Positions 4,840 through 28,536 of a stretch of 64,000 nucleotides of DNA are shown one piece after another. The stretch is from Amphiura filiformis (lineage: Eukaryota). Each line of letters starts with the position of its first letter. Positions within the stretch are counted from its first letter, which is position 1. The notes below the pieces were generated by a model, which saw only the letters and a list, made by a program, of their open reading frames with translations, was not told where the DNA came from and made no database searches. The position numbers were made by a program, and so were the translations under genes. The stretch is from the NCBI RefSeq assembly GCF_039555335.1, contig NC_092646.1, forward strand, positions 36,923,911 to 36,987,910. The letters are read 5' to 3'.

Positions 4840-4920
4840 TATTTGGAAACGTGAATTAAACACCCAGTAAACTGTCCGCAATTGATAAAATCACAAAAAA
4901 TTATTTAACCAATAAGTTCC

Positions 4921-5165
4921 CAGTAGTTCTGGTTCTGGTCGTCATCTTTACTTTGCTTAACCTGGCTATCTTTCTTGGATGAGTGGCACTCTACCCACAT
5001 ACGAGGTACGTGAATCTCTGCCAATCCAATCTAAAAACCATCGTCCAAGCATCTTCAAATGCTATGATATCTCTATACTTTGCTTACCTGACTATCTTTC
5101 TTAGATGGGTGGCGCTCTACCCACATACGAGGTACGTGGATCTCTGCCAATCCAATCTGAAGCTG
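4921..5165 (-). repeat. Tandem duplication (2 copies of about 118 bp) of the 3' tail and donor site of PARP4 exon 5088..5310
   Basis: The block …CTACCCACATACGAGGTACGTG[A/G]ATCTCTGCCAATCCAATCT… occurs twice. The distal copy has its donor destroyed (cttaacc in place of cttacc). Confidence 0.7.
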
Positions 5166-5310
5166 AAAGCCATCATCCAACCGTGTGCAACCATCAGCCA
5201 ATGCTACTGTAGCTTTGCTTGCTGTGCGCTTGATTCTGATTGGATGAGTGGGTGACTCCAGAGTTCGAATGTCATAGGGCATCTCTATAGCAACCTCCAC
5301 AGACAGATTG
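5088..5310 (-). CDS. PARP4: PARP4 exon (between VIT and VWA): NLSVEVAIEMPYDIRTLESPTHPIRIKRTASKATVALADGCTRLDDGFQLQIGLAEIHVPRMWVERHPSKKDSQ
   Basis: Acceptor ccatcag|C and donor CAG|gtaagc. Matches human SLTMSIEMPYVIEFI…HIGLSAAYLPRMWVEKHPEKESE. Confidence 0.8.
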
Positions 5311-5460
5311 CTGATGGAAAATGAATGATAAAGTTCACTGTTGTAAAATGCCACTGAAAAAATGTTTCATTTTAAATTTGTCTTCAAAACATCAACATTT
5401 AAGTTTTGCATCAATCATCAATCATATGTACATAATGTATTAGCATCATAGCACCAATGC

Positions 5461-6060
5461 CTTTGACAGATCAGAGTGATCTTACCCTTTCATTTCTTTG
5501 GCTATCTTGACCAGGACCATGCGCAGAATTTTTTAATTGGTGGTGCAGAATTCCAAAATGCGGGCCTCCTCCCAAAAAAATCACTTGCATGCAGAAAGTG
5601 GACTTCACCACCCCCTAAAAAAATCTTCTAATTTGGACCTTCTTCGACATTTGTGCAGTTTTTTGTCATGAAGAGTGTTTTTTGGTAAGGATTTTTTTCT
5701 TGACTGTCTTCAGGTCTGCCTGAGTAACCTCTGACAGTGCACTTCCAAGGAGCTGCACCAAATATTGGTTTATATCCGTCAGCATTAACTAAGTACATCT
5801 AAATGATGTTACCCTTTCATTTCTTTGTCTATCTTGACTGTCTTCAGGTCTGCCTGAGTAACCTCTGACAATGCTGCATCTTTCTTCCAAGGAGTTGCAG
5901 TGCCAACTACACCAAATACTGGTATATATCTGTCAACAGTGACATCTAAATGAACTTACCCTTTCATTTCTTTGTCTACTTTGACTGTCTTCAGGTCTGT
6001 CTGAGTAACCTCTGACAATGCTGCATCTTTCTTCCAAGGAGCAACACTGCCTGGTAGACC
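5461..6060 (-). repeat. Tandem triplication (about 130-bp units, third partial) of the 3' tail and donor site of PARP4 exon 5960..6165
   Basis: The string cttaccctttcatttctttgtctatcttgactgtcttcaggtctgcctgagtaacctctgaca… recurs at about 5951, 5813 and 5495. Each copy keeps a GTAAG-type donor on the minus strand. Confidence 0.7.
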
Positions 6061-6165
6061 AAACACTATCTTATCTCCATCTACAGATAACTCTGCCATG
6101 TAGACTATCTTGATGACCACGGTTGTCTTTGGGGGAAGGTTACCTACACTCACTGTGAACACATC
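5960..6165 (-). CDS. PARP4: PARP4 exon (VIT domain, second half): DVFTVSVGNLPPKTTVVIKIVYMAELSVDGDKIVFGLPGSVAPWKKDAALSEVTQTDLKTVKVDKEMK
   Basis: Acceptor ctttgcag|GATGTG and donor GG|gtaagt. Near-identical to human DVFTVSVGNLPPKAKVLIKITYITELS…ATVAPWQQDKALNEN. Confidence 0.85.
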
Positions 6166-6234
6166 CTGCAAAGAGACACAATTTGAGTGATATCCTCTGC
6201 GCTGCAGCCTTCCAGTGGTGGCACAATGAGGGGA

Positions 6235-6545
6235 CATTTTATCTTGTCCCCCAGTAAAAACCCAAAAGTACGAAAAATTCTACATTTTGCAGAAATTTTG
6301 CGCAAAATTGGTAGATTTTCCCCCACCTGAAATTCACCCCCCTGGTAATGCCACTGCAGCCTTAACTGTACAAAGATCAAGTGGCAACACCAGGAATTTT
6401 TTTCGGGGGCATTGAGGAGGCAAAGTGAATTTCAGGGGGAAAAATCAACAAGTTTTGCGCAAAATTGCCGCAAAAAGTGGAAATTTTCGTAATTTGGGGT
6501 TTTACTGGGGGCAACGGGGGGAAGAGTTCTGACTGGGGGGCATTT
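6235..6545. repeat. Inverted pair of a dispersed repeat (family member also at 55245..55400)
   Basis: 6400–6545 is about 85% identical to 55245–55400 (…GCAAAGTGAATTTCAGGGGG…TTTTGCGCAAAATTG…GTGGAAATTTTCGTAATTT…). 6235–6365 carries the reverse complement of the same repeat. Confidence 0.55.
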
Positions 6546-7204
6546 GCCAGCACTGCAAAGACCCCCATTAGGCCTATAACAATGACAAATTCAGGACATT
6601 AACAGAGCACAAACAAAGGGCCTCTTCTCCTTAGTGGATAAACAAGTAATCAAGTATGGTAGAGAGCGGTTTAAATTCCTCTGAACAAGTTATAAATCAT
6701 CAAAAAAAGTGGGAATTGGTGAATCCAACGGACGAGGACACAAAACACATCAAGGATCAATAAATGATACAAGAGGATAAATCATCTTCAAGTATTATAG
6801 TTGATGGACACACCCCCACCCACACCTACATTGTACACACAATTCAGTCTCTCAGACAATCTAAAATTGAATTGAAAATGTGGGAACTTCTAGAAGCTAC
6901 TGATGCAGATGAAAGATGTGTTGTTCAATGACCAAGCTGATAAGACTATGAGGTGGTTAAAAGAAGCCATTTGGATCCACATCAAAGAACATGACACTCT
7001 AAACAAAGACGAGGGGCCTATGCACTCAACAACATCTTTGACCAACTCATCACACCCTCTGCAGTGCTTCCTGTTGCACGTAAAAGGCCACACAGTCTGA
7101 TGGGATGAGTTGCCATTCTGACGAAACCACTAGTGTAGTGGTGAAACGTCACTAAAACGGTGAGTAAATCACCTTCGTTTTTAGTTGAAATTCTTCAAAA
7201 TGAA

Positions 7205-7515
7205 AAAATGCACAGTTGAAATCAACATTCCTAATAGGCTATTCCAGTTGAAATCCACACTACCCCTGTGGAAGATTTTGGAAATATCTTCCACAGGGAG
7301 AGTATGTTTTTCAAATGTAATTGGTCAGGGTTAATCATTTTGAAAAACATACTCCCCCTGTATTATGGCTTTACCTATCTTCCACAACTGGAGTGAGTAT
7401 TTCAAATGGATGTTACCCAATTGTCTATTCTATTTGAAACTCATACTCCCTCTGTGAAAAACTTTAGCTAAATCTTCCACAGGGGTAGGATAGATTTTAA
7501 ATGGAATAGCCCACT
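7205..7515. repeat. Three tandem units of a hairpin-containing repeat (family member also at 29480..29700)
   Basis: Each unit has the hairpin CCCTGTGGAAGAT…ATCTTCCACAGGG and the motifs TTGAAATCCACAC and GGAATAGCCCA. Both loci share these motifs. Confidence 0.5.
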
Positions 7516-7566
7516 GAACTTGTTCAAAGATGTTAGATAACATGTATTTTATTATGCACTACTTAC

Positions 7567-7785
7567 TGGTGTTTCTTCATCCATAAGATAAGCTCCATGT
7601 CCCTTGCTGATAGCTTCTTTGTATTCCTTGTGGGCTGTTTCTTTGTCTTTCACCTCCCCTACGATATGCTTGTCATTAATGAAAGCTTCAAATCCACACA
7701 CTGCTGCCATATCATCCAGGGGGAACACATACTTAGCTTCTATCGGGTCATCATTTTCATTGGTGTACACTTGGAAGACTACAAC
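7567..7785 (-). CDS. PARP4: PARP4 exon (VIT domain, first half): VVVFQVYTNENDDPIEAKYVFPLDDMAAVCGFEAFINDKHIVGEVKDKETAHKEYKEAISKGHGAYLMDEETP
   Basis: Acceptor tttttag|GTTGTA and donor CCA|gtaagt. Near-identical to human VIVFQTYTNKSHVPIEAKYIFPLDDKAAVCGFEAFINGKHIVGEIKEKEEAQQEYLEAVTQGHGAYLM. Confidence 0.9.
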
Positions 7786-7799
7786 CTAAAAATTAGACA

Positions 7800-8110
7800 G
7801 AAAATGTGAAAGCAATACAAAGAAGGGGAATGAGGAAGAGGATGGAGGAATGAGGTGAAACATCAGGAGGAAGAAAAAGAATAATGTGGGAGGAATGTAG
7901 GGAAAAGGATGTAGATGTCGTAAAAGGATGGTTGAATAAGATTGGACCGATAAATTTAAAAAGGGAAAGGAAATATCAAAAGAAGGAAGAAGATAGGGGG
8001 GAGAAAACATGGTGTGGAAAACAAGGAAAGTGACAACAAGGAATAAAGAGTGGAAAAGGGGGAAGATGAGAAGACACAATAACAGAAGGATAAAGAAGAA
8101 AGAAAAGAAG
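7800..8110. repeat. GA-rich low-complexity tract in an intron
   Basis: Runs of GAAGGGGAATGAGGAAGAGGATGGAGG… The 97-aa ORF at 7786..8079 is an artefact of this tract. Confidence 0.8.
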
Positions 8111-8519
8111 AAGATGATAAAAAGAAAATCCTCAGGATATACTCATAAAAAAATACACTATTAACTGATTGTCATCTTTGCTCATCTGATGATAATGTTT
8201 ATCTGATATAGATAGAGATTACATATAATGATATTGCAGTATTAAAGTAAGGAAGTTTGCATGTTTTAAAACCGCTTGATATAAAGCAGATATGCTAACT
8301 ATCAAATTTTTACGGTGACACACTCCTTTTTTTGCCCATTGTTTCTGAAACAAACAAAAAACTGTTCTTTTAATTTGGCAGAATGTAGCTCATATAACAG
8401 AGAACTCTCATGAGTGACACTTGTTGGTTGCTTAAAAACAGTAGACCATGTTGGATGTAGCCCAATACTGGGTTGGCCAAGAACTGAATATCATCCAGAT
8501 CTTGACATCTGATACTCAC

Positions 8520-8650
8520 CTCCGCAGCCAAGTCCAGTAATTTAGCCCTGACATGGACAGCTTTCAGTGGCACTGGTTGATCACTATTAGACAATAGACC
8601 TGCTTGGACTTTGGACAGTGGGTCAGTAATGGACTGCACATCATTCAGAT
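8520..8650 (-). CDS. PARP4: PARP4 exon (linker into VIT): DLNDVQSITDPLSKVQAGLLSNSDQPVPLKAVHVRAKLLDLAAE
   Basis: Acceptor tttcag|AT and donor GAG|gtgagt. Its reading frame was checked codon by codon against ORF 8370..8675. Resembles human AGLQDASGNLVPLEDVHIKGRIIDTVAQ. Confidence 0.8.
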
Positions 8651-8800
8651 CTGAAATATTTGAAAATTTAGACAATTTTTATTTATGGCCCCATATCCAA
8701 ATTATGAATAAATTCGGAAATTAGACAAATTACATCTATGAGTATAAGCAACTACGGTTTGATTTGCATGGTAATAAGGTGATATTCCCAGGTTTCTTAC

Positions 8801-8966
8801 CAATTTTATCTCCCGATACCATCTCAATGTCCAAGTCATCTTGATCCAAGATGGCTGCCGTCTCCATGGAAACATTGAGGTTTTTAGGTTTGTCTGCTGG
8901 CAATGTGAATTCTACAAGATAGCGTATCCGCTGTTGAGTTATGTCATATACTGCAAATTCATCATC
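8801..8966 (-). CDS. PARP4: PARP4 exon (C-terminal end of the PARP catalytic domain): DDEFAVYDITQQRIRYLVEFTLPADKPKNLNVSMETAAILDQDDLDIEMVSGDKI
   Basis: Acceptor tttttag|GATGAT and donor ATTG|gtaaga. The DDEFAVYD…RYL motif matches the PARP catalytic C-terminus (PARP1 YNEYIVYD…KYLL, PARP4 DDEFVVYKTNQVKMKYII). Confidence 0.8.
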
Positions 8967-9187
8967 CTAAAAATAAAATGAAATACATTTCAAATACAAT
9001 ACATAGATATTTCATAATTATTATTATGTACATGTATCAATTTTAAAATATCATAACTGTGCTTGTAAAGAGACTCCCTGGCACATATTCTATAATATGC
9101 AAATTCACATTGTCTGTGCAAAAACTGTTACGTACTACTTTAATTTGTTTCACCAATTTCACTTCCTACAGAGAAATACCCAGCATA

Positions 9188-10316
9188 GAAATTAATACAG
9201 GGTGTATCAAAATGATTGGTACCGGGCTATGTGACATGTTCAAAAATATATCAAAAATATAAAATTTCAAATAAATATAGTTTTTTACTATCAATAGAAA
9301 GGGGCATATGTTAACGTATTGATCTGATAATCTGAAGATAATAGGTTGACGCATCTGGGAGCTATTGTCATTTAAACGATGATCGACGTAATCGTGGTTT
9401 TACTTACACAACACAAGATAAAACGGTTCACTGCTTGAACTATTTATTGTATACATGCTCTTCAATATCTCACCTCAGTCTACATGACAGCATTGCACAT
9501 GCTTTTAGAAAGATAGTTCCTGAAATTCCTGCCTTACGACTCTGGCAATGTGAGGTGAAGCCCTATATTGAATGAACTTAGCACCTGGGATGGATCCATT
9601 CTGTAACTGCCCATATCAAATTTTGAAACATTGCAAGTTATAGCATGTTTGCATGGGATACTCATTGCTCTTGGAAACTGTCTTCTAAATCTTATCTGCA
9701 CCTCTCCATAGCTTCGTGTCAACTAGTAATTCTTTACTATGAATGCACACTGAAGTGTGGAATACTGTGAAGCCATTCCAATAACTTTCACCACGTCTAA
9801 CCTAACATCCATGCACTGTCTACAGTCTATAGCCATTCTGTCACACCATCATTAATAATCTTAAACATCTTTATACTACAATTTAAATTACCGCCCTAGA
9901 AAGTGTTGATACATTAACTTCTTTCACCCACCTAAAATATTCAAGTCAATAATATTACTCCCAACCAATAAAATATTGATTAGAACATTTATTTATATTA
10001 TGAATGAAGAAATAGGCAAGGAAAAAATTTCCATGATTTTCAACATATCATTCTCACAAGGTATTGGTAGTAAAATAGAGCTTTGAAAATGATCCAGCGT
10101 TACGATGAAAAGTGTAAAAACACCTACTTTCCTTTATAATCATGTAACTTTAGAACAGAATGTGCTATCTTTATGATCTAAAATTCTTAGAGAAGATAAA
10201 ACTACTATAATTTCAAATATTTAAACAATTAACCCCAAGCTGGTACATAAAATAGTTTAAAAAATCTGCAAAAATGAAAAGTCGTTGGTACCAATCATTT
10301 TGATACACCCTGTAGC
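9188..10316. mobile_element. Non-autonomous DNA transposon remnant with 26-bp terminal inverted repeats and TA flanks (Tc1/mariner-like)
   Basis: CAGGGTGTATCAAAATGATTGGTACC at 9190–9216 and its exact reverse complement at 10289–10314, each followed or preceded by TA. The interior has no ORF. Confidence 0.5.
9538..9600 (-). CDS. PARP4: PARP4 micro-exon (catalytic domain): NGSIPGAKFIQYRASPHIARV
   Basis: Acceptor ttacag|AATGGA and donor GTC|gtaagg. It is 63 bp and phase 0, and sits between the exons ending …PSDFK and beginning DDEFAVYD, at the position of PARP1 …NISLDGVDVPLG…. Confidence 0.5.
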
Positions 10317-10394
10317 ATGCAAGTTATGTCATAACTGGTCTTATGGTTATCTTGTAAAGACTACAAAACAGATTACAGTAAATAGATGCATTTT

Positions 10395-10800
10395 GTAAAG
10401 GGTGTGACAAGTCCTACGTAGGGGAGACAGGAAGACAGTTTGGGACAAGACTCAAAGAACACAAGAAAGACTCTGAAACAATAGCCGAAAGAAAATTCAC
10501 AAGGGCAAACAGGAAAGAATCAACTTCTGAACAACACAAATCAGCCATTACTGACCACATCACGCAGGAGAACCATGTCATTGAATGGGAGGGGGCAAAA
10601 GTACTTGACAGGGACTCGAACGCATTCACCAGAAGAATATATAAAGGGAAGCTATCCAAATCCGCAAAAAGGGGGCCAAAGCAATCAACCGCGATGAAGG
10701 TATCGTCTCTCTCGATCACGTATACGATCCACTGCTCAAAACAAAAACAACATCACTTCCTGGAAATGTCAACAAGCCGTTTCGCGGGAAAAGCAGTGGA
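10395..10800 (+). mobile_element. Penelope-like element 3' fragment (GIY-YIG endonuclease domain) with a frameshift
   Basis: The plus-strand translation reads GCDKSYVGETGRQFGTRLKEHKKD…HKSAITDHITQENHVIEWEGAKVLD, then in another frame KEAIQIRKRGPKAINRDEGIVSLDHVYDPLL. These are canonical GIY-YIG and PLE C-terminal motifs. No reverse transcriptase lies upstream, so the copy is 5'-truncated. Confidence 0.65.
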
Positions 10801-10976
10801 CCAAGACACTTGTGATCAAGCCATCAGCCCAGATGGCGAAAGCTAAAGTAGTGAGTTACTTTTTATTGGATTTACCTAGCAAAATGTTTAATTATACAAA
10901 CAAATTACCTTGAAATTGGTAGCTTTGGAAGCTCTGTTTAAAATATGCTTACAGATAGCTCTGTCAGGTACTAATA

Positions 10977-11816
10977 TTAAGGTACTTCCTGACATCTGGA
11001 CATTGTCCTTACCTTAAAATCTGAAGGATACAGCTCTGTTCCTTTGACTCCATGAACACTATGATATCCTTGAGGGGCTTCTGACAGTTCCTTGTGGTAC
11101 TTCTTAACATCTGGACATTTCCTTACCTTAAAATCTGAAGGATACAGCTCTGTTCCTTTGACTCCATGAACACTATGATATCCTTGAGGGGCTTCTGACA
11201 GTTCCTTATGGTACTTCTTAACATCTGGACATTGTCCTTACCTTGAAATCTGAAGGATACAGCTCTGTTCCTTTGACTCCATGAACACTATGATATCCTT
11301 GAGGGGCTTCTGACAGTTCCTTGTGGTACTTGTTGACATCTGGACATTGTCCTTACCTTGAAATCTGAAGGATACAGCTCTGTTCCTTTGACTCCATGAA
11401 CACTATGATATCCTTGAGGGGCTTCTGACAGTTCCTTGTGGTACTTGTTGACATCTGGACATTGTCCTTACCTTCAAATCTGAAGGATACAGCTCTGTTC
11501 CTTTGACTCCATGAACACTATGATATCCTTGAGGGGCTTCTGACAGTTCCTTGTGGTATTTGTTGACATCTGGACATTGTCCTTACCTTGAAATCTGAAG
11601 GATACAGCTCTGTTCCTTTGACTCCATGAACACTATGATATCCTTGAGGGGCTTCTGACAGTTCCTTGTGGTACTTCTTAACATCTGGACATTGTCCTTA
11701 CCTTGAAATCTGAAGGATACAGCTCTGTTCCTTTGACTCCATGAACACTATGATATCCTTGAGGGGCTTCTGACAGTTCCTTGTGGTACTTGTTGACATC
11801 TGGACATTGTCCTTAC
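10977..11816 (-). repeat. Tandem array (about 7–8 copies of 117 bp) of the 3' tail and donor site of PARP4 catalytic exon 11817..12000
   Basis: The unit is ACAAGGAACTGTCAGAAGCCCCTCAAGGATATCATAGTGTTCATGGAGTCAAAGGAACAGAGCTGTATCCTTCAGATTTCAAG followed by gtaaggacaatgtccagatgtcaagaagtacc, repeated head to tail. Every copy retains the GTAAGG donor. Confidence 0.8.
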
Positions 11817-12000
11817 CTTGAAATCTGAAGGATACAGCTCTGTTCCTTTGACTCCATGAACACTATGATATCCTTGTGGGGCTTCTGACAGTTCCTTGTG
11901 GTACTTATTAACATCTTGGCATTTTCCAAGTGCTACTTCATTGATGGTCATCAGTCTTGTACCAGTTGTCTGACTTGCTGCAGAATATTTGGCACTTGTG
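11817..12000 (-). CDS. PARP4: PARP4 exon (catalytic domain): TSAKYSAASQTTGTRLMTINEVALGKCQDVNKYHKELSEAPQGYHSVHGVKGTELYPSDFK
   Basis: Acceptor cctgtcacag|C and donor AAG|gtaagg. Matches PARP4 STSIKYSHPGETDGTRLLLICDVALGKCMDLHEKDFSLTEAPPGYDSVHGV and PARP1 SKSANYCHTSQ…LLLGEVALG…KGKHSVKG. Confidence 0.85.
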
Positions 12001-12064
12001 CTGTGACAGGGGTAGAAAAAAATATTCCAAAGCTAATTCATTTGACAAGGAGATGGTTGACCAC

Positions 12065-12345
12065 TTAGCCCCCCCCAAAAAAGGTTTGTCTCAAAGCTCA
12101 CGAGAAATTTAAAACAAATGCGAAATGCGATTTTTTTTTTTTTTATTTTTTTTTTATTCCCAACTTTTTTCATGGAATTTTGAGAAAAAAAGTCTGATTT
12201 TCGCCGATTTTTCTGGAAAAACTATAAAAAATTATTTTTTGAAATAAAAAAATTTCCGCATTTGTTTTTTGTCAAACGTGGGATTTTACAAATGCGCGCG
12301 CAAGCTTTGAGACGAACCTTTATTTTTTTTGGCCTTACCAATGAG
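12065..12345. mobile_element. MITE-like element with terminal inverted repeats
   Basis: GGTTTGTCTCAAAGCTCACGAG near the left end pairs with …GCAAGCTTTGAGACGAACC near the right end. The interior is A/T-rich with poly-T and poly-A runs. Confidence 0.4.
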
Positions 12346-12574
12346 CACTTAACAATCATTTCTTGGGGGATGGCTTCAAAACCCAACTGCTGGTTAACTG
12401 GCAGCAACCTGGCACAACCAGCAGCTGGGCCTGGTTTGCATCGTTCAGAACAAAAGAAACCAGGCCCAACTGCAAATTCTATATAAGTTCTGCAAGGTCA
12501 ACTGGTGGATAACCAGCAGATGGGTTTTTAAACCATTCCTAAATATACTTAAGAGATTAAATAAATTTTGTATG

Positions 12575-13160
12575 CACAAAACCAGAAATTTACTCACGAT
12601 TGACGGTTTCGTATATCATGGTCGATAGACATCTTCAGAATGATGATGGTAGATCCTCACCACTTCCGGTTTGCCGGATCCTGACTGTAGATGGTGTATC
12701 AGCCAGGAGGGGATCGTATACGTGACTTAAGTAGTGGGCCCCCTCGTCTCTATTCATGACGTTGGTTCCCCTTCTCCTGATCCAGATGGATTCTCTGATG
12801 TGTCCAGAGTTAGAATCACACTCCTTACAAATAGGATTTTTGCATTATCCCAGTTAATGACGTGATTGTGTTGCACAGCATGCTCTGCTATATAGCTGAT
12901 TTTGACTGTTCACTTGACGATTGTTTACCAGCTTGGCGGGTATAGTTTTGCTTATTCTTCGACACCCTGGCTGTTTCTTTTTGGTGTTTGTTGAGACGAG
13001 TCTCGAATTTGCGACCAGTTTCGCCCACTTAGAATGGTTACAGTTGGTGCACAGAATTTCGTAGACGCAATCAGTAGTGTTACGGGGGTCGATTTTATCC
13101 TTACGATCGACCATGATATAGACGAAACCGTCAACCGTGAGTAAATTTCTGGTTTTGTGC
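12575..13160. mobile_element. Element with about 50-bp inverted termini and a degenerate GIY-YIG-like ORF (Penelope-related fragment?)
   Basis: Termini AAACCAGAAATTTACTCACGATTGACGGTTTCGTATATCATGGTCGAT (12575–12625) and the reverse complement at 13108–13160. The minus-strand ORF 12854..13195 contains …DCVYEILCTNCNHSKWAKLV…, resembling the GIY-YIG core (GVYKIPCxCG). Confidence 0.4.
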
Positions 13161-13442
13161 ATACGAAATATACTTAAGATGCTTTTTTGTACCATCCTAT
13201 TGCAGAAATATTTAAAAAAATGTTTTAAAAAAATATCTGAAAATTGTTTATTTATGGCCCCAGGTAGCTTTTAACCTATCATATCTTACCATCTGATATC
13301 AAGATATGGAACCAGTACATACCAATATTATAGCCAGTTATTGGGTGGCCCATAGCAGATTAACTATGGGGTTACTCCAAGCTGGAGTAGTTTTTGAAAA
13401 ATTGGTCTTGGTGGGAATAGAATATGTCTTTATTATCCTTAC

Positions 13443-13541
13443 CTAGAACTATTAGCAAAGTATATAGCACTCCCTAGCATACCAGCGTCAGTTCTCACTC
13501 CTCCAAAATCATCTACGACAATCTTCGGTAGAAGTAAACCC
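13443..13541 (-). CDS. PARP4: PARP4 exon (catalytic domain): GLLLPKIVVDDFGGVRTDAGMLGSAIYFANSS
   Basis: Acceptor ccatag|G and donor TAG|gtaagg. Matches PARP4 GLLLPKVVEDRGVQRTDVGNLGSGIYFSDS, the nicotinamide-stacking GxGIYFA motif. Phases fit both neighbouring exons. Confidence 0.85.
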
Positions 13542-13599
13542 CTATGGTAAATAAATATGTAAACATATTGGGTACAATAACAAAGAATATATTAACGCA

Positions 13600-13830
13600 C
13601 TCCACGCGGGTGTCGACTGCAGATGACAAGTTTCAAAATTTTGTTACAAATTCAACAAATTTCAGAATTGTAAAATTTCATGGAGATATTTGGAATCAGC
13701 ATGAAAAATACATTAAAATGAATACAAACAAGCCTAGGAATGTTTCAGTGGTTCTTAAGATAGCGCGCTTGATATTTTGAGAAAATATATCAAAATTTGG
13801 ACTTTTTATGTTGAAGCCTATGGCTAGCAT
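13600..13830 (+). repeat. Dispersed 220-bp repeat, copy 1 (copy 2 at 18005..18235); both copies sit just upstream of a foldback palindrome
   Basis: …GTCGACTGCAGA[T/C]GACAAGTTT…ATTTGGAATCAGCATGAAAAATACATTAAAATGAATACAAACAAGCCTAG…GATATTTTGAG…AAAATTTGGACTTTT… is shared by both loci. Confidence 0.7.
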
Positions 13831-13959
13831 GCAGAGCATTAAGGTAGTAATAGTTTCATTTGTATCTTGCCCCTTTCTTAACCTGTCAGTCTGTCTGTCT
13901 ACACATTGATAGTCAAGCAGGTGCCTATTTCACTGGTTGCAGTATTGAACCGTGTGTGC

Positions 13960-14790: not shown

Positions 14791-14849
14791 GGCTAAACAT
14801 TGCTGCAACAAGGGCAGCTGAAATCACTACCAAACATGAGGTGAAATGA

Positions 14850-14930
14850 AAGTTTGTCTCTCTCTCTCCCTCTCTCCTTCCCTCCTTCCCTCTCTATCTC
14901 TCTCCCTCTCCCTCCCCCTCTTTCAAAAAA
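14850..14930. repeat. (CT)n/(CCT)n microsatellite; another (CT)n at 15160–15190
   Basis: ctctctctccctctctccttccctccttccc…. Confidence 0.9.
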
Positions 14931-15416
14931 TTCAGCCCCAGAACACTCTGACCATTTTGACTAGAATTTGTTTAATGCCACCAGTCTGAAAGAATGCCCC
15001 TATTTCTATTTGGCATACCCCCTCTCTCACCCCAATATATGCTTCCTTAAAAAGTTAAGAGAGCAAATTCTCACAAATAGTGGGGACTAGTACTTTCACC
15101 TGCTTTATGGAGGCCATTTTGGATGCCCCCACTTTTTTTAATGCTCCTATCACAAAACCGCTCTCTCTCTCTCTCTACAACCTCTCTCTCCATACACATA
15201 AAACGATGGTGCCTTTATCATTCTTTCGCCAACCAACTGTATGCATTACTTTAAAGAAAATTCATAATTTTAAATTTCATTCACTTTAAGCTCTGAGTGG
15301 AACACTCAACTTGTTTTCTTACCAGGACGTCACAGGCCGATTCGAATTTTCAAACAAACTTATGTGAATTGTATAATGTATATATACACTATATTGTACA
15401 GAATATGCAAGCCTAC

Positions 15417-18235: not shown

Positions 18236-18244
18236 TAAACATTA

Positions 18245-20430: not shown

Positions 20431-22283
20431 TGACCCTATTACTTTAATGACCCCTATAAGTAGGGATCAAAATTTCATGTTGCCCCTATTGCTACAAAAT
20501 ATTGTTTTTTGGATAGAACTCATCAATAGAAGTATTTTGGTGGTTAAATGGTCAAAATCGGTCAAAAACTTTTCGAATTATGAATTTTCAAAGTTTCCCA
20601 TTCTGACCGGTCATTGGAACGAAATAAAATGACAAGGTCCAAAAATATCAATTGGGAGCAAAATTGGCATAAGCATATATTTACCTTTATATATTTCTTT
20701 ATTTTAACATATATGCAAACATGAAACAAGCATATTGTGAAAGTATCAAAGGGTTTCTTATGAAATGGCACTTTACTAGTCAATGGCATAAATTATTTTT
20801 TCAAACCGAGGCATTGAAATCATGCATTTAGAGAACATTTTGCCAAAAATCATCTAAGATGGCCGATATGGCACAAAATCAAAATTGCACTAAGTCCAGG
20901 TAAACTATTTTTTTTCACAACCAAAAATTTCAATGTTATTGGGTTTAATATGACCAATTAGTAGGTGTATGCAAATTAAATCTTAAGTGTCATTGAAGGT
21001 CATTGACTCATTCACAACAATAGAGGTTATCCACTTCACTCATCATGCTCATGTGTGACTTCTAACAAAAGGTGCTGGTTCCCGTAGTATTCCTCATTCA
21101 AAACAATTCAATACATGACCTCAGAGTTACCTGCATGACTTTCGCGGGCTTTTTTGAAACAGTTATGGTTGCACATTCAGGTATTTCTTTTGAAAGTTCT
21201 AAACAAGGTATAGCCAGCAGCAAGTTGTATATGGTATAGGCCTAAACATATAAGAAAACGTTTAGGGTTGAAATCAGGTGAAAAATACATCGAATGGGCA
21301 CGAAACTTCACATTTATGTTCAGATTGGTGTATTCTTAGCATGATTCGAAAGGCGTATGGAAATTCCAAAGGGAAGCTGGTGATTTAATTTGTAACTCGA
21401 GATCTACTTGTTCAATTTTTTAACCTTTTTACAGAGGGTATGATAGAGGTATTACTGGCAACTCTGCCAAATTACAGCTCAGTAGGCCACGTTTTTCACC
21501 TGAAATTATTGACATGAATATTTTGTGCCATTCTTGAGCATGCTGAACTCAGCCACTGGCAATTAAGCGCACTGTGGCGATGGACCAATTTTGACTCGCA
21601 CTTACAGGAAAATGAAATAAGTTATGTTGCTGTAATTTGCAAGATAGTTACAAAATATAATTGGCATTATAACTTCCCCAATTTTTACAGAAAAATATTG
21701 AAAAATAAAAGAATGAGATCAATTTAGAAATGTCTGTGCAAGCAGTGCACAGTTGAGCTCCCTGCATGTCTATGGCAGTGTTCTAGTCAAGTTGATGGTT
21801 CATTGGTCATCCCTATTATAAGAGAATGCAAATATTTCAACAAATCATCGTTATCCACCTGAACAATACATGCATGTTGTTCACTTCACTTCACTTTATT
21901 CCACTAAGTGTGTTAATGCTAGTGGGTTTGGCATCGTACATTACTGTAAAAGTCAAAATTTGTCATGCTTTGCCAATTTTGATTTTTGTTTCACTTGTCT
22001 TTGCAATTCAAAGTTTTCTTGCATTGACCTATACACAAAAGGAATCTATCCACATTGGTTATTTTTTCAGTAGCTGCTTGAAATATGCACAAATATAAAT
22101 GAATCATGCAAATATCCACATATATTGTCATTGGACAAGACTTGTGGCCTTTGAACGTGTTTAAAACAAAACTGTCAAGAGGTTACATAGGAGGTTATTC
22201 CTTAAACATGTTCAAGGGCAATAAATGACACATAGGCAGTTTTTCCTGCCCCAGATATACAGAATCAACATCTTTCCCCTTAC

Positions 22284-22421
22284 CTTATCAATTGATATAG
22301 TTTCTACAGGAACCGTCAAAATATCAGATAACTGTCCCAGTGCTTCCTGCCATACATGGTCTACCAGACTTGCTACTTCTTCTGTTAATGGCTCCTGAGC
22401 CATACCTCTCTCTAGCATCAC
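22284..22421 (-). CDS. PARP4: PARP4 exon (start of the PARP regulatory domain): (VML)ERGMAQEPLTEEVASLVDHVWQEALGQLSDILTVPVETISIDK
   Basis: Donor AAG|gtaagg, anchored to ORF 22212..22532. Matches PARP4 SQEVSDLVEMIWAEALGHLEHMLLKPVNRISLNDVSKAEG. The 5' boundary is ambiguous: CAG|GTGATG at 22421, or the in-phase alternative CTAG|AG at 22411. Confidence 0.75.
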
Positions 22422-22504
22422 CTGTATCATGAAAAGGTTTGAGTTATGAAAGGGATATATCATCTGAACAGACCCACAACATGTACATTTATATATGGAA
22501 TTAC

Positions 22505-22547
22505 CTTTCAGTATATTAGTGATCCAATCCATCTGGATAGCAGCTTC
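22505..22547 (-). CDS. PARP4: Candidate PARP4 mini-exon EAAIQMDWITNILK(G), the founder of the 83-bp array
   Basis: An open frame bounded by AAG|GAAGCT and AAAG|gtaatt. Possibly homologous to PARP4 …EQLQALLLEEVMNSS…. Only phase-compatible with the next exon if the CTAG|AG acceptor at 22411 is used. Confidence 0.35.
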
Positions 22548-23000
22548 CTTTTGTCTTGGTCACGTTCCATGGTGACTTTGTCTTACCTTTCTGTATCTTG
22601 GTGATCCAATCCATCTGGATTATAACAGCTTCTTTGTCTTGGTCATGTTCCATGGTGACTTTGTCTTACCTTTCTGTATCTTGGTGATCCAATCCATCTG
22701 GATTATAACAGCTTCTTTGTCTTGGTCATGTTCCATGGTGACTTTGTCTTACCTTTCTGTATCTTGGTGATCCAGTCCATCAGGATTATAACAGCTTCTT
22801 TGTCTTGGTCATGTTCCATGGTGACTTTGTCTTACCTTTCTGTATCTTGGTGATCCAATCCATCTGGATTATAACAGCTTCTTTGTCTTGGTCATGTTCC
22901 ATGGTGACTTTGTCTTACCTTTCTGTATCTTGGTGTTCCAATCCATCTGGATTATAACAGCTTCTTTGTCTTGGTCATGTTCCATGGTGACTTTGTCTTA
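22548..23000 (-). repeat. Tandem array (about 5.5 copies of 83 bp) of mini-exon-like units with their flanking donor site
   Basis: Unit …GAAGCTGTTATAATCCAGATGGATTGGATCACCAAGATACAGAAAG followed by gtaagacaaagtcaccatggaacatgaccaagacaaa. Every unit keeps GTAAGA. The unit length is not a multiple of 3. Confidence 0.8.
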
Positions 23001-23336
23001 CCAGGAAAGTTGAAAAAGAAGGAGGGACATCGGAATTATATCCTTGAGATAATCCCGTAGGTAATCCTGTCGCACCTATTCATAGTCCTTTATTCTCAAG
23101 TAGTTACACATCTACTTGAAAGTAGCCTTTGATGTGATGTGGGTTGCCGACTACGGTTGATTAATTTTCACTCCAGAATTAAAACCATATCCAATGTTTC
23201 TATAGAGAATCCCTTGAAAGTATGACACGTGTGTGTTAAGTACCTGATGTTGCTCTGAAGGGATGCTACACGTGGATACTATAAGAAAGAAATTTAGTTT
23301 TGTAAAGATTCCAAAAAAATCCGCCCATTTTGGAAC

Positions 23337-23581
23337 ATATGTGACCGTACATACGAATGAGCCGTAAATGTCCTCAATTGTATTCTGAGTTACAGTGTAA
23401 AATGGGCATGAAGGTCGTATTCATAGGTACCTCAATTTGGTGCTACATGTACCTCATTTAATGAGATACACGTAGCACCAAATTGAAATACCTATGAATA
23501 TGACCTTCATGCCCATTTTACACTGTAACTCAGAATACAATTGAGGACATTTACGGCTCATTCGCGCTGTACGGTCACATA
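23337..23581. repeat. Hairpin palindrome with about 120-bp arms
   Basis: TATGTGACCGTACATACGAATGAGCCGTAAATGTCCTCAATTGTATTCTGAGTTACAGTGTAAAATGGGCATGAAGGTCGTATTCATAGGTA… and its reverse complement, separated by a very short loop near 23459. Confidence 0.8.
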
Positions 23582-24029
23582 TATTAATTATTTAGGAGAG
23601 TGTTTTAGGATTTTGTTAGAAAAGGGATGATTTTTGATCATCTATATTTTATTGTTTTATGTATTTTCCTGTCATTTCCTGCAAACCTAATAAAGATATT
23701 TTGATAATTGAAAATAGGCTGTATCATAAATCGTAGAGGTTGAAAGCGTAACCAAGCGTGCAAAATTATTATTTGCCATGGAACTTCGGTCATATTTTAT
23801 TTGAAATAAACTGGATGTTAGGATCTGCATGCATGGTATGCATAGTATTGATGGTATACAGACACTGACCTTTCCCTAAAACTAGTAAGCATCAACTTGT
23901 GTATCACACCCGTCATGGGTTCGAACCCTTTTGTTGTATTTTATTGTTAAACCTAAATAGCGTGATTGCTTTTGAATGAGCGGCAACACACATATTTTGT
24001 TTGAGGATAGCTGGATCTATCTCCTTTCT

Positions 24030-24600
24030 TTACATCTTCTCTGGTCTTACCTTTCTGTATCTTGGTGTTCCAATCCATCTGGATTATAACAGCTTCTTTG
24101 TCTTGGTCATGTTCCATGGTGACTTTGTCTTACCTTTCTGTATCTTGGTGTTCCAATCCATCTGGATTATAACAGCTTCTTTGTCTTGGTCATGTTCCAT
24201 GGTGACTTTGTCTTACCTTTCTGTATTTTGGTGATCCAATCCATCTGGATTATAACAGCTTCTTTGTCTTGGTCCTGTTCCATGGTGACTTTGTCTTACC
24301 TTTCTGTATCTTGGTGATCCAATCCATCTGGATTATAACAGCTTCTTTGTCTTGGTCCTGTTCCATGGTGACTTTGTCTTACCTTTCTGTATCTTGGTGT
24401 TCCAATCCATCTGGATTATAACAGCTTCTTTGTCTTGGTCATGGTCCATGGTGACTTTGTCTTACCTTTCTGTATTTTGGTGATCCAATCCATCTGGTTT
24501 ATAACAGTTTCTTTGTCTTGGTCCTGTTCCATGGTGACTTTGTCTTACCTTTCTGTATTTTGGTGATCCAATCCATCTGGACAACATCTTCTTTGTCTTG
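24030..24600 (-). repeat. Second 83-bp tandem array (about 7 copies) of the same mini-exon plus donor unit
   Basis: The same unit as 22548–23000, with TGATCC/TGTTCC variants. It lies directly 3' (in transcript orientation) of candidate exon 24549..24710. Confidence 0.8.
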
Positions 24601-24710
24601 GTCATATTCCATGGTGAGGTTGTTTTCTGGTTGTACAGAAAGCTGTAGACCTGCAAAGCTTCTTCACTGGTTGCACTGTACCGACACTCACGGACACCAC
24701 CTGTGTCACT
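24549..24710 (-). CDS. PARP4: Candidate PARP4 exon SDTGGVRECRYSATSEEALQVYSFLYNQ(KTTSPWNMTKTKKMLSRWIGSPKYRK); 3' end uncertain
   Basis: Acceptor gatttacag|AGTGAC. The first half resembles PARP4 GMETRRQFAIKKTSEDASEYFENYIEELKKQ. The second half is itself an array-like unit, so the true donor may lie earlier. Confidence 0.35.
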
Positions 24711-24861
24711 CTGTAAATCAGAAAACAGCAAAAATCTGTTGTATGCTTATTGTCAAAAAATCAATGAGGTAGAAGAATTCTGCATACTGGAGCAAAACTA
24801 ATAAAGGAGTAAAAATTGACACTTTGTTTTATTCGAAGATATACACAAAATCTCCTCTCAC

Positions 24862-25061
24862 CTTGATATCGGATAATTTCCCATGATGCACCATTACTCT
24901 GAATGGATGCGTGACATCATCCCTGATGCTAGCGCCCCCTGGTGGCAGCGGTGGAATGACATGCAACTCCAGAAGGTAGAAGCTACACTCCTTGGTTTTG
25001 GGGTCAGTTTTCTGTACGAATATAGAATCATTAAACAGACTATAATCATGATAATTGCTGA
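24862..25061 (-). CDS. PARP4: PARP4 exon (between BRCT and the regulatory domain): SNYHDYSLFNDSIFVQKTDPKTKECSFYLLELHVIPPLPPGGASIRDDVTHPFRVMVHHGKLSDIK
   Basis: Acceptor ttttttag|TC and donor AAG|gtgaga, anchored to ORF 24829..25086. Resembles PARP4 LPQDFEVAKYNTLEKVGMEGGQEAVVVELQCSRDSRDCPFLISSHFLLDDG. Confidence 0.6.
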
Positions 25062-26164
25062 CTAAAAAACTACCAATCTTTATCATAAATCATTTGAGGC
25101 TGTGTTGAAATAGCCCATTGTCATAACCATGAACAGCAAAGCATTAATGATGTGCCCATTAATGTTACATGGTCCAGAATTAATAATCTATTGCATTCAA
25201 GCAAGGGGCCAAATTCAATAGCTGATGCACACAATAAGTGTGAGGGTAGTGAGGGGTGTAACCTAAAGCACTGACCACCCTATCCTTGACTGACTGAGAG
25301 GTATCGTCTGCCATCTGGATGCCCAAACTGTTCTGAATCTCAGGATGCGCTCAGTTTAGGTCATATATAAAGTGCACAGTTCCACCGCACTGCTTATAGG
25401 TGTGTATCTGGGGTGAGGGGGCCAGCAACCCCCCACTCTAAGCTGCTGTGAACCACTGATTGGCCCATGTGGTTGTCTTTTATAATGTCTATGTGCCTAT
25501 ATTCTTTCCTATAAGTTCTTGACATGTGTTACTCCTCATGGGCTATTGTTCACTGTAGCATTTTATTTAAAAAAATAAGTGATATACAAGATAATTGTTC
25601 AGATAAAATCACATCATTGTTGTGCAGGAAAAACCACCTATGTACTTATGGCCCTTGAACAAAACTGCAAAGAGATTACAAAGAAGGTTTTACTTTAAAC
25701 ATGTTCAGGGGCCAATATGAGATATTTCCTGCCACACGACGACATCGATATATATCAACTATTTGCTGTCGTAGACGACCATGACGTCATATTGGCGACC
25801 CCTGAGCATTACCATAGCAACTGGATCACGCTTTCATGAGAACCACAATGGCGGTATCAATGTATGGAATTTATAGATCAAAAATTTAAATTACCAGTCA
25901 TATTTAAGACCTGCAACCCATGATTTCAGAAGGAAAACATCTCACAAAAGCTTACTAGGCAGTGAAACCCATAAGAAATGGCTAAAACTTGATTTTCAAA
26001 CAGCAGAACATAAACGTGTACAGCGTAGATAGCGTTGTCATGCAAACCGTGTGATCCAGCACTACGGAAGTAGTTGTGACCTCGGCAGGAAGTGATGTTG
26101 GTCTACGACAGCGAATTGACATATGTAACATAAAACCTTTATAAATACCTGTAGAAGAGTACAT

Positions 26165-26385
26165 TTGGCCAATTCATAGCATTCATCTGGGTATGCAGGT
26201 GCCTGGTCTGATCCCAAAGGATACACTCTGAAAACAATCAGTCAACATTAAATTGTAAAAATCAGACAAATACATTCCAAACTGTTACCTTCCTAAGGCA
26301 CCAAGTCTAATTCATAGCATTCATCTGGGTATGTTGGTGCCTGGTCTGATCCCAAAGGATACACTCTGGAAACAATTAGTCAAAA
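26165..26385 (-). repeat. Tandem duplication (2 copies of 110 bp) that contains a splice-site-bounded open segment (candidate small PARP4 exon)
   Basis: Copy 1: tttcag|AGTGTATCCTTTGGGATCAGACCAGGCACCTGCATACCCAGATGAATGCTATGAATTGGCCAAATGTACTCTTCTACAG|gtattt. Copy 2 has CCAACA in place of CCTGCA and a different 3' end containing an in-frame TAG. Confidence 0.4.
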
Positions 26386-26899
26386 ACATATTTATAAGGT
26401 GCGTTGGAGGGGAGCATGAACTATCGGTTGTTTGCACTCAAATATTGAGACAGTTAAAACTGACACACAAGTATGGGTTCTATATAGGAGATACCAAGGC
26501 TTGATATAAAGAGTGCCATCTCTACTCCATATGCATGATCTTTCTTGAGAAGGGGGTAAAAGGTCAAAACTTTCAATTTATTAGTTGCCTTTAAATCTTA
26601 AGAACCTCAAGACCTGCGGAAACATAAATGCAATAAACCATACTGACTCAGGTCTATATCTTTCATTTTAGAGGCTGTGCAATAATGATGAGCCGGGGGG
26701 ATAAAAATTACAAACAGTGTGCCAAAAAATGCTTACCTCCTCTCGGCCTGCCAAATTAGCTGCAATAATTAAAACCTTTAAAACAATTGTGGAGACTAAC
26801 CTTATCTTGTTGATGTTGAAGGAGCTTGCTTTACTTATCTTCGGTTTTTCTTGGGGATGAGCTGGTCCTGAGTTTTAAAAGAAAAATACACAAACAATA

Positions 26900-28536
26900 A
26901 CACAAAAGTAAGTGTTATGACCATGTATAGTTTGAACATAGGTACACACTAGCTCATCTGCACCAAGACACATCTGACACACATTAATGAAACCAAACTC
27001 ACCTGGAACAATCTTCCCTGAGCTGAACTCCTGTGTCATAGATGTCCCACAGACAATGTGTGCATCAGTATCTACATGTACCAGATTATCTTCACTGAGA
27101 CACATATCAAAGAAATTAAAACTCACCTGTGACAATCTTCCCTGAGCTGAACTCCTGTGTCATAGACATCCCACAGACAATGTGTGCCTCAGTATCTATA
27201 CTAGCTTATCTTCACTGAGACACGCATTAATGAAACCAAACTCCCTGTGACAATCTTTCCTGAGCTAAACTCCTGTGTCATAGATGTCAGACACACACAT
27301 TAATACATCAATGACACCAAACTCACCTGTGACAATCTTCCCTGAGCTAAATTCTTGTGTCATAGATGTCCCACAGACAATGTGTGGCTCGGTATCTACT
27401 AGCTTATCTTCACTGAGACACACATCAATGACACCAAACTCACCTGTGACAATCTTCCCTGACCTAAACTCCTGTGTTATAGACGTCCCACAGACAATGT
27501 GTGCCTCTGTATCTACTAGCTTATCTTCACTGAGACACACATCAATGACACCAAACTCACCTGTGACAATCTTCCCTGAGCTAAACTCCTGTGCCACAGA
27601 CGTCCCACAGACAATGTGGCTCTACATGTATTAGCTTATCTTTACTGAGACACACATCAAAGAAGCCAAACTCACCTGTGACAATCTTCCCTGACCTAAA
27701 CTCCTGTGTCATAGACGTCCCACAGACAATGTGTGCCTCATTATCTACTAGCTTTTCGTCACTGAGACACACATCAATGAAACCCAACTCACCTGTGACA
27801 ATCTTCCCTGACCTAAACTCCTGTGTCATAGACGTCCCACAGACAATGTGTGCCTCATTATCTACTAGCTTTTCGTCACTGAGACACACATCAATGAAAC
27901 CCAACTCACCTGTGACAATCTTCCCTGACCTAAACTCCTGTGTCATAGATGTCCCACAGACAACGTGTGGCTCTGTATCTACTAGCTTATCTTCACTGAG
28001 ACACACATCAATGACACCAAACTCACCTGTGTTATAGATGTCCCACAGACAATGTGTGCCTCTGTATCTACTAGCTTATCTTCACTGAGACACACATCAA
28101 TGACACCAAACTCACCTGTGACAATCTTCCCTGAGCTAAACTCCTGTGCCACAGACATCCCACAGACAATGTGTGCCTCATTATCTGCTAGCTTTTCGTC
28201 ACTGAGACACATCAATGAAACCCAACTCACCTGTGACAATCTTCCCGAGCTGAACTCCTGTGTCATAGGCGTCCCACAGACAATGTGTGCCTCTGTATAT
28301 ATACCAGCTTATCTTTACTGAGACACACATTAATGAAACCAAACTTAACCGTGACATGTGCAGCTCTGTATCTACTATAGCTTATCTTTACTGAGACACA
28401 CATCAAAGAAACCGAACTCACCTGTGACAATCTTCCCTGAGCTGAACTCCTGTGTCATAGACGTCCCACAGACAATGTGGGCCTCATTATCTACTAGCTT
28501 TTCGTCACTGAGACACATCAATGAAACCCAACTCAC
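26900..28536 (-). repeat. Tandem array (about 14–15 copies of 120 bp) derived from the 3' part of the BRCT exon, including its CAG|GTGAGT donor
   Basis: The unit encodes …(G)EFGVIDVCLSEDKLVDTEAHIVCGTSMTQEFSSGKIVT and copies the exon text MDFIDVCLSEDKLVDTEPHIVCGTSMTQEFSSGKIVTG. At 120 bp (40 codons) the array is largely open in frame on the minus strand, but the three ORFs 27265..27597, 27581..28006 and 27982..28266 are frame-shifted relative to each other, and the plus strand is also open. Confidence 0.8.

Follow-up and report, generated by a model that had tools for sequence, protein, structure and literature searches.

Tandem arrays of exon tail and donor site in the introns of a PARP4-like gene of the brittle star Amphiura filiformis

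The PARP4-like gene and the duplications at its exon boundaries

The stretch considered here (the window) comprises 64,000 nucleotides of the genome of the brittle star Amphiura filiformis (contig NC_092646.1, positions 36,923,911 to 36,987,910), with positions counted from its first letter. It carries a portion of a gene resembling PARP4 (vault PARP), six introns of which open with head-to-tail arrays of a unit that joins the end of the preceding exon and its GT donor to a short stretch of intron. The gene lies on the minus strand, as judged from the occurrence of CTTACC in the plus-strand units and from the count of GTAAG in the array region (44 on the minus strand vs 9 on the plus), and its 22 exons were set with GT-AG junctions under the guidance of the A. 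filiformis protein model XP_072018392.1 (hereafter P0200). The PARP4 identity proposed in an earlier note, made from the letters of the window, is supported by protein matches and domains: the open reading frames (ORFs) of the exons match PARP4-like proteins carrying PARP, VIT and vWA domains, the order of BRCT, PARP catalytic, VIT and vWA domains is that of PARP4, and the homologs carry PF00533, PF00644, PF08487/PF13757 and PF00092/PF13768. Splicing at the first donor of every array yields a stop-free ORF of 3,624 nt over the 22 exons, 96.0% identical to P0200 and 94.4% identical to XP_072018547.1 (P0121). Because these two annotated A. filiformis PARP4-like proteins are themselves 94.1% identical to each other, the gene appears, by sequence identity, to be a third close member of the family or else the ortholog of a sister taxon. 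No convincing second gene was found in the 30-64 kb half of the window.

The arrays were delineated with Tandem Repeats Finder (TRF), self-blastn of positions 4000-30000, unit tables and reading of the sequence, the exon ends being fixed by junction peptides against P0200 (Table 1; a slash marks each junction). Units of the six donor-side arrays, labelled A to F, measure 83-147 bp and recur in 2-14 copies, each consisting of the last 72-109 nt of the exon, the GT donor and 11-38 nt of intron. In array A, for example, the exon ends ...TTCAAG/GTAAGGACAATGTCCA and is followed by GATGTCAACAAGTACC...TTCAAG/GTAAGGACAATGTCCA, reiterated. A seventh duplication, at exon E4, is of the acceptor side: a pseudo-copy that includes a stop precedes the true exon at an offset of 138 bp and with 95% identity. 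Self-blastn contributed this pair (138 bp, 26171-26383) and the 126-bp pair at 4945-5161, and revealed no other local duplication between 4000 and 30000. Boundary duplication thus affects seven exons; the remaining 15 of 22 are without any.

Table 1. Coordinates of the PARP4-like gene portion, its array-bearing exons, the arrays, and the tandem repeats as detected by program
Feature	Positions	Strand	Description
PARP4-like gene portion	752..30274	minus	22 exons (BRCT, PARP catalytic, VIT, vWA)
Exon E2 (BRCT C-terminal part), source of array D	28537..28738	minus	donor CAG/GTGAGT at 28536
Array D	26974..28536	minus	~13 intronic copies, 117-bp unit (103 nt exon tail + 14 nt GTGAGT...)
E4 pseudo-copy (intron tail + acceptor + exon head)	26309..26383	minus	from self-blastn, sequence, tblastn
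Exon E4, true copy	26149..26227	minus	junction peptides match P0200
Exon E6, source of array C	24549..24710	minus	donor AAG/GTAAGA at 24548; junction ...SPKYRK/VMLERG matches P0200
Array C, proximal half	24044..24548	minus	6 intronic 83-bp copies (72 nt exon tail + GTAAGACAAAG)
Transposon-like insertion, 1,041 bp	23003..24043	minus	splits array C
Array C, distal half	22501..23002	minus	6 further 83-bp copies, last one diverged
Exon E8, source of array B	17205..17372	minus	donor CAG/GTAAGA at 17204; junction ...QNLCQ/LVKDIV
Array B	16947..17204	minus	2.4 intronic copies, 97-bp unit (76 nt exon tail + 21 nt intron)
Exon E12 (PARP catalytic domain), source of array A	11817..12000	minus	donor AAG/GTAAGG at 11816
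Array A	10981..11816	minus	7.2 intronic copies, 115-bp unit (99 nt exon tail + 16 nt intron)
Exon E16 (VIT domain), source of array E	5960..6165	minus	donor AGG/GTAAGT at 5959; junction ...KEMKG/NLSVEV
Array E	5477..5959	minus	decayed copies, 147-bp unit (109 nt exon tail + 38 nt intron)
Exon E17, source of array F	5088..5310	minus	donor CAG/GTAAGC at 5087; junction ...KKDSQ/ACMLTF
Array F	4945..5087	minus	one extra 126-bp copy (101 nt exon tail + 25 nt intron), 91% identical
TRF row	5795-6067		period 147 bp, 1.9 copies
TRF row	10981-11927		period 115 bp, 8.2 copies
TRF row	16947-17281		period 97 bp, 3.4 copies
TRF row	22501-23002		period 83 bp, 6.1 copies
TRF row	24044-24617		period 83 bp, 7.0 copies
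TRF rows	27305-28642		period 117 bp; several, overlapping

The earlier note had placed arrays at all of these sites, and TRF and self-blastn bear it out, as the minus-strand reading and unit tables do for the homology of each unit to the adjacent exon tail; several of its dimensions require adjustment. Array F, given as 2×118 bp at 4921–5165, does consist of two copies, with a unit of 126 bp (4945-5161) and a second donor decayed to GTTAAG. Array E (3×130 at 5461–6060) has a tandem part of 147 bp x ~2.3 at 5698-6041 and a remnant with a third donor, its downstream donors being GTAACA (5812) and GTAAGA (5485). The copy number of array A (about 8×117 at 10977–11816) stands, with a unit of 115 bp x8.2 over 10981-11927, and array B (about 3×97 at 16950–17204) is as described (97 bp x3.4, 16947-17281). 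The 83-bp units reported at 22548–23000 and 24030–24600 (about 12×83) form two blocks (22501-23002 and 24044-24626) of one array C, of 13 units with 11 nt of intron each, lying in one intron and split by an insertion. Array D (about 15×120 at 26900–28536) has a 117-bp unit and 13 GTGAGT donors (26974-28642), so that the chain of about 15 equally spaced donors shortens to about 13 at most. The count of at least seven introns of donor type is reduced to six, as 26165-26385 duplicates an acceptor and exon head; likewise, the rule that arrays lie directly downstream of their source exon in transcript orientation holds for the six donor arrays but not for the E4 pseudo-copy at 26309-26383, which is upstream. 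A consensus donor in nearly every copy is true of arrays A-D and fails at the second donors of E and F.

Units within arrays differ by 3-18%, with the units of array A 97% identical to one another and all bearing AAG/GTAAGG. The donors are nonetheless unchanged in 8 of 8 aligned units of A, 3 of 3 of B, 12 of 13 of C and 12 of 12 of D. Variant types are common to several units, and the most diverged units are the last ones of arrays C and D, the inner units of D being closest to the exon copy; this is the pattern of concerted evolution with diverged edge units. A "conveyor" in which likeness to the exon would fall with distance was considered and rejected, identity to the first unit being flat in A and non-monotonic in D, and a higher-order repeat relating the two halves of array C was dropped since its units are all about 95% alike. 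The arrays occupy 94% of their intron in the case of D (intron E2-E3), 96% in C (intron E6-E7, counting array plus insertion), 38% in B, 29% in A, 74% in E (intron E16-E17) and 13% in F.

The insertion within array C is bordered by a duplicated GGTAAGAC, a target-site duplication, has the termini CAGAGAAG.../...CTTTCCTG (CAG.. termini) and contains a perfect hairpin of about 250 bp at about 23340-23590. It resembles a non-autonomous element of hAT type whose insertion point coincides exactly with a donor copy.

The location of the duplications is far from random. When seven units of the observed sizes are placed at random in the 29.5-kb gene span, the probability that at least six span a donor is 3.5e-6, and that all seven span an exon boundary 4e-6. 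Neither TRF nor self-blastn detected a purely intronic long-period array inside the PARP4-like gene of the window. The six donor-side units are, in addition, 74-88% exon-derived, which has a probability of 3e-4 if the boundary is taken to fall uniformly within a unit. A 121-bp x2.2 tandem repeat at 31630-31890, upstream of the gene and devoid of exon homology, is the only long-period array of the window away from PARP4 exon boundaries.

Donor choice, reading frame and exchange among units

All 29 of the downstream donors tested lead to a premature stop 1-55 codons past the authentic junction, and such stops arise even with the in-frame units of E and F and with the first extra unit of D (115 nt). 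The junctions of P0200 fit use of the first donor at exon E2 (...GKIVTG/PSQHQ, to which ...GKIVTG/PAHPQEK in the window was matched) and at exon E12 (...PSDFK/DDEF, with ...PSDFK/DDEFAVYD in the window), as well as at E6, E8, E16 and E17, where P0200 has the junctions given in Table 1. We infer from these frames and junctions that splicing at this locus would use the first donor of each array.

Recursive splicing had been raised in the earlier note as a question posed by such chains of donors. A recursive splice site combines a strong polypyrimidine tract and AG with an immediately following GTAAGT, and lies in a long intron. The unit ends do resemble these ratchet-point sites, in that AG/GT formally places a 3' splice site directly before a regenerated 5' one. 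They differ, however, in that five of the six arrays lack a pyrimidine tract: upstream of AG/GT, pyrimidines account for a fraction of 0.18-0.42 in arrays B-F vs 0.53-0.84 at the real acceptors of the gene, and only array A, at 0.68, falls within the acceptor range. The array-bearing introns measure only 0.65-2.9 kb, and most units (those of 83-126 nt) do not reach the 143 nt of the gene's smallest intron. Because of the purine-rich sequence upstream of AG/GT and the shortness of most units, recursive splicing is not supported for arrays B-F; in array A, with its acceptor-like fraction, splicing unit by unit is conceivable.

The differences among units carry a further signal. Counted in the frame of the source exon (with D relabelled to its true frame), variable columns at codon positions 1, 2 and 3 number 0:0:6 in array A, 0:0:3 in B and 12:4:16 in D, and the intron part varies at 0 of 16, 5 of 21 and 6 of 14 positions, respectively. 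Since the downstream units of A and B are untranslatable in frame, translation in cis does not explain this third-position bias. In array C, units carry either TCA-CCA-AAA (SPK) or ACA-CCA-AGA (TPR), mirroring a difference between real exons, with the window and P0200 on one side and P0121 on the other. Such features hint that units may have been repeatedly re-seeded from, or converted by, functional exon copies, whether alleles or paralogs, an outcome to be expected where unequal exchange between homologs moves a functional first unit into the array. A related brittle-star array described below (L005) has a ratio of about 1:2:3, as counted by eye. The bias among units is best regarded as a lead, and is not universal.

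Two annotated models bear traces of such repeats. Residues 1-52 of P0121 start in the equivalent of array D (MTQEFSSGKIVTGEFGFINVCLSEEKLVDTEPHIVCGMSMTQEFSSGKIVTG) and comprise 1.3 array-D-like units, the BRCT N-terminus being absent; this start is probably a gene-model error caused by the array. In P0200, residues from about 1260 to 2130 consist of some 35 in-frame copies of a 25-amino-acid unit, TYMGWEPTKSPPGQPQTLE followed by VSIDTH, while P0121 holds the TYMGWEPTKSPPGQPQTLE segment once, followed by ISPEE. The "VS" of the repeat could be a translated GTAAGT, and the whole looks like a 75-nt donor-side array read through as coding sequence by the gene predictor.

Related loci, precedents and other features of the window

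Arrays of this kind recur in relatives of the gene, at other exons. Two contigs of one ENA assembly, L005 and L006, hold PARP4 exons 82-93% identical in DNA to those of the window, with introns that are unalignable. Array A is absent from both, decayed copies of tail plus donor following the equivalent exon. L005 has a donor-side array of 69 bp x4 at the equivalent of E14, with a unit of 66 nt of exon plus GTA and with AGT common at the junction. Both contigs carry acceptor-side arrays at the equivalent of E16, with three extra copies in L005 vs one in L006 (the two loci may be paralogs), and L006 has a further acceptor-side array at the equivalent of E19. In the locus L004, from a distant invertebrate and about 50% identical to any named PARP4, three repeats derive from exons: the VIT exon has a donor-side array of about 127 bp, the equivalent of E17 is duplicated on its acceptor side, and, at 5353-6575 with a period of about 190-380 bp, a segment of the E13-equivalent exon (QANEFVIYNVGQQRLRYLVEFSLPGD) occurs in four copies in ATC-rich low-complexity surroundings. 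A few purely intronic arrays are also found in L006 and L004.

No boundary arrays were found in the compact orthologs L001 and L003, nor in the sea-urchin PARP4 (23 mapped exons), and no boundary-only arrays in the sea-cucumber PARP4 (L008), where at least seven minisatellites lie wholly within introns and some exons are duplicated whole. In its C-terminal part (20335-27675), sea-cucumber PARP4 shows duplications on a scale of about 1 kb, each with a 66-nt exon encoding a 22-amino-acid repeat; such whole-exon tandem duplications add to the protein, unlike the boundary-only arrays. Because the brittle-star loci and L004 carry it and L001, L003, sea urchin and sea cucumber do not, the boundary pattern is lineage-specific and recurrent, and not general to the gene or to minisatellites. 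The contention of the earlier note that a systematic process rather than one accident is at work therefore gains from the placement statistic (P about 4e-6), from the boundary arrays of related loci, and from their absence in sea-urchin and sea-cucumber PARP4.

The phenomenon is not new in kind. Boundary-spanning minisatellites are known in human F7 IVS7 (intervening sequence 7; 37 bp), IFI6/6-16 and CBS IVS13, as well as in LMNB2 (100 bp x10-15) and PDGFA (81 bp x16-18), the last two with unit sizes similar to those described here (PMC1557585). In experiments on F7, only the most upstream of identical donors was used, and downstream donors competed only if the copies were perfect consensus (PMC1557585). 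As in the human cases, the first monomer in the brittle-star arrays spans the boundary, an authentic donor being followed by identical pseudo-donors; the human cases are, however, isolated, one per gene, unlike the six donor arrays of this PARP4-like gene, and the F7 unit contains only 4 nt of exon, whereas units here are 74-88% exonic and their splicing is predicted from the sequence.

A closer parallel is provided by the "mirages" of amphioxus, reported in Adh3, troponin C, the globins BflGb6/9 and PGBD5 (Canestro et al. 2002, as relayed in PMC3087553 and PMC3902484). They occur at donor and acceptor boundaries, leave splicing undisturbed and undergo concerted evolution; the mechanism behind them is described as "unclear", and intron gain by way of them has been proposed (PMC3087553, PMC3902484). 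Somatic instability and haplotype polymorphism are described for Adh3 and the globins in the accounts of PMC3087553 and PMC3902484. The arrays of the window share with mirages the boundary-spanning unit, the donor-side and acceptor-side forms and the reiterated splice signals. Real exon-intron boundaries are repeated within tandem units (six donor-side, one acceptor-side), and the TRF periods of 83-147 bp and the self-blastn offsets lie within the head-to-tail units of about 10-160 bp that define such elements. Amphioxus units, of tens of bp to about 160 bp, are 81-100% identical with diverged edge units, and the brittle-star arrays are alike in this respect. What differs is the host, an echinoderm (Ophiuroidea) and not an amphioxus, as the 94-96% identity to Amphiura proteins shows, and the density: six donor-side arrays and one acceptor-side duplication within one 22-exon gene, with up to 13 consecutive consensus donors and two introns that are nearly all array.

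The arrays also invite comparison with the model of Rogers, in which introns are gained when an exon segment containing AGGT is duplicated in tandem (Hellsten et al. 2011, PMC3265369). In both, tandem duplication provides extra splice signals and duplicated sequence becomes intron. Unlike in that model, the duplicated unit here straddles a boundary already present and adds to the existing intron beside it. The window shows no newly created intron position: every array-bearing intron sits at an exon end where the tblastn matches of L004 and of L005/L006 stop as well. Within the body of literature searched, there was no report of such arrays in brittle stars or other echinoderms, and no genome-wide analysis of boundary-spanning arrays. 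The kind of element is thus already known, while boundary arrays are new for echinoderms and unusually dense.

Some further features of the gene family and the window may be recorded here. The C-termini of P0121 and P0200, and that of P0131 from the sponge Ephydatia, end in an actin-like N-terminal segment (…DTTKAGFAGDDAPR.VFPSIVGRPRHQ), Pfam PF00022 being listed too for P0131; this tail represents either a true PARP4-actin fusion or read-through into an adjacent actin gene. The single Rfam match of the window (49 bits, also called by ARAGORN) is a tRNA-Thr (TGT) gene or tRNA-derived element at 4231-4305 on the minus strand, in intron E17-E18. A dispersed repeat, probably of a SINE (short interspersed element) or MITE (miniature inverted-repeat transposable element) family, is present in two plus-strand copies, at 3445-3711 in a PARP4 intron and at 28896-29240 in intron E1-E2, which share the ORF MALNVQTP(E/Q)WVHSVPWFGESRK... 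The gene-poor half contains a CT-rich low-complexity tract at 37375-37711, covered by many overlapping TRF rows, with an AG-rich counterpart about 7 kb off, at 44851-44915.

Origin and tolerance of the arrays

We consider it probable, at roughly three chances in four, that the arrays are mirage-type boundary-spanning minisatellites of a brittle-star PARP4-like gene that are kept silent by first-donor splicing. A local tandem duplication would take in an exon's 3' end, the GT donor next to it and 11-38 nt at the start of the intron, and unequal exchange or replication slippage would then expand this unit to 2-14 copies. Tolerance would follow from the first donor being the sole one joined to the remainder of the exon and its upstream acceptor, so that every downstream copy would be plain intron sequence and the arrays would need no function of their own. 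Units would meanwhile keep exchanging sequence with functional exon copies, alleles or paralogs, and thereby stay exon-like. The outcome would be intron growth, strings of silent cryptic donors and errors in gene models. On this account the arrays are presumably near-neutral, growing by unequal exchange and re-seeded from functional exons. Turnover is apparent in the absence of array A from L005 and L006, where other exons are hit instead, and in the old two-copy arrays E and F with their decayed donors. The shape of the units is explained by a filter of survival: a duplication inside an exon, or of a whole exon, would alter the mRNA, so that among duplications touching coding sequence only those taking in one boundary can survive.

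Several observations nevertheless weigh against this reading. First-donor use rests on Gnomon models of paralogs, on the logic of the ORFs and on analogy; the P0121 model begins inside the equivalent of array D, using a downstream donor copy; and the donors of array D are perfect consensus (CAG/GTGAGT), the one setting of F7 in which downstream competition was seen. Third-position bias is lacking in array C (4:4:3) and in the L004 array (3:7:8). All seven local duplications lie at boundaries and none is purely intronic, set against at least seven purely intronic arrays in the sea-cucumber PARP4. Neither this placement, nor the exon-richness of all six units (at least 74%, P = 3e-4), nor the invariance of donors in arrays A-D is explained by neutral duplication plus tolerance. 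The survival filter, in particular, does not explain the absence of purely intronic arrays and the exon-rich units, and this shortfall leaves a process biased toward exons or exon ends as a live rival for the origin of the arrays.

Such a targeted origin, in which mutation is directed to exons or their ends instead of duplications falling at random and being tolerated, is tentatively entertained here and holds the lesser share of our confidence. It could take the form of transcription- or splicing-coupled damage, of an R-loop or pausing of RNA polymerase II past the 5' splice site, or of exon-positioned nucleosomes. As it concerns only the birth of the arrays, it is compatible with their later silence. 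In its favour are the placement of seven out of seven local duplications across exon boundaries (P about 4e-6), the composition of units (74-88% exonic, with 11-38 nt of intron, P = 3e-4, and an intron part of only 3-6 nt in L005) and the independent rise of arrays at exons elsewhere in the same gene, both in related brittle-star loci and in a distant invertebrate; the purely intronic minisatellites of sea-cucumber PARP4 further imply that ordinary minisatellite biology does not yield the boundary pattern. On the other hand, the sample is one gene family, a few purely intronic arrays do exist in L006 and L004, and imperfect short homologies at unit ends (AATGxCCA in A, AGT in L005) fit microhomology-mediated slippage. 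That the repeated donors are instead under selection for some function is unlikely. Conceivable roles include recruitment of the U1 small nuclear ribonucleoprotein (enhancing splicing or protecting against premature polyadenylation), regulated unproductive splicing leading to nonsense-mediated decay, and unit-wise recursive splicing that restores the same junction; the invariance of donor motifs in A-D despite unit differences of 3-18%, the coding-like substitution pattern of the exon-derived parts, and the AG/GT ending of every unit, with a pyrimidine content in array A equal to that of real acceptors, could all be read in this sense. Yet positions are not conserved, other exons being affected in related loci and none in sea-urchin or sea-cucumber PARP4; second donors have been lost in E and F; the downstream donors all lead to premature stops; the AG/GT of B-F lack a pyrimidine tract (0.18-0.42 vs at least 0.53) in units of 83-126 nt that fall below the 143-nt smallest intron; and the amphioxus and F7 studies report normal splicing to be unaffected.

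It is very improbable that a downstream donor is the real one and the units are translated as a repeated peptide. The unit of array D does correspond to 39 codons (117 nt), with ORFs of 94-141 amino acids crossing several units, P0121 begins with 1.3 array-D-like units, and the roughly 35 in-frame copies in P0200 resemble exon tail plus translated GTAAGT ("VS"). Against this, each downstream donor in the window, those of array D included, meets a stop within 1-55 codons, units of 83, 97 and 115 nt shift the frame, a transposon sits within array C, and the junctions of P0200 match first donors. Mis-assembly or false expansion of the arrays is scarcely credible. Tandem arrays are prone to errors of copy number, and the amphioxus globin paper notes one mis-assembled mirage, but the units here are diverged with variant types in common, a transposon with its target-site duplication is nested in array C, and similar arrays occur in independent long-read contigs and are echoed in NCBI protein models.

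Boundary-spanning minisatellites silenced by first-donor splicing would have implications beyond this locus. Already the arrays mislead gene predictors, one NCBI model starting inside an array and another appearing to translate about 35 units. If the pattern extends genome-wide, ophiuroid genomes would hold hundreds of natural constructs in which up to a dozen identical donors come after the authentic one, mirroring the human F7 set-up that was used to argue for directional selection of 5' splice sites. Boundary duplication could in that case build most of an intron, as in the two introns here that are 94-96% array, and the origin of mirage repeats, called unclear since 2002, would become testable with long-read assemblies. 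More speculatively, and with confidence well short of even, one may suppose that in brittle stars, amphioxus and one or more further invertebrate lineages duplication is actively directed to exons or their ends, perhaps in connection with transcription or splicing, and seeds and re-seeds splice-site arrays throughout the genome. If true, targeted duplication would be a leading force, not yet quantified, in the growth and gain of introns, and these genomes would offer a natural experiment in the choice among identical 5' splice sites.

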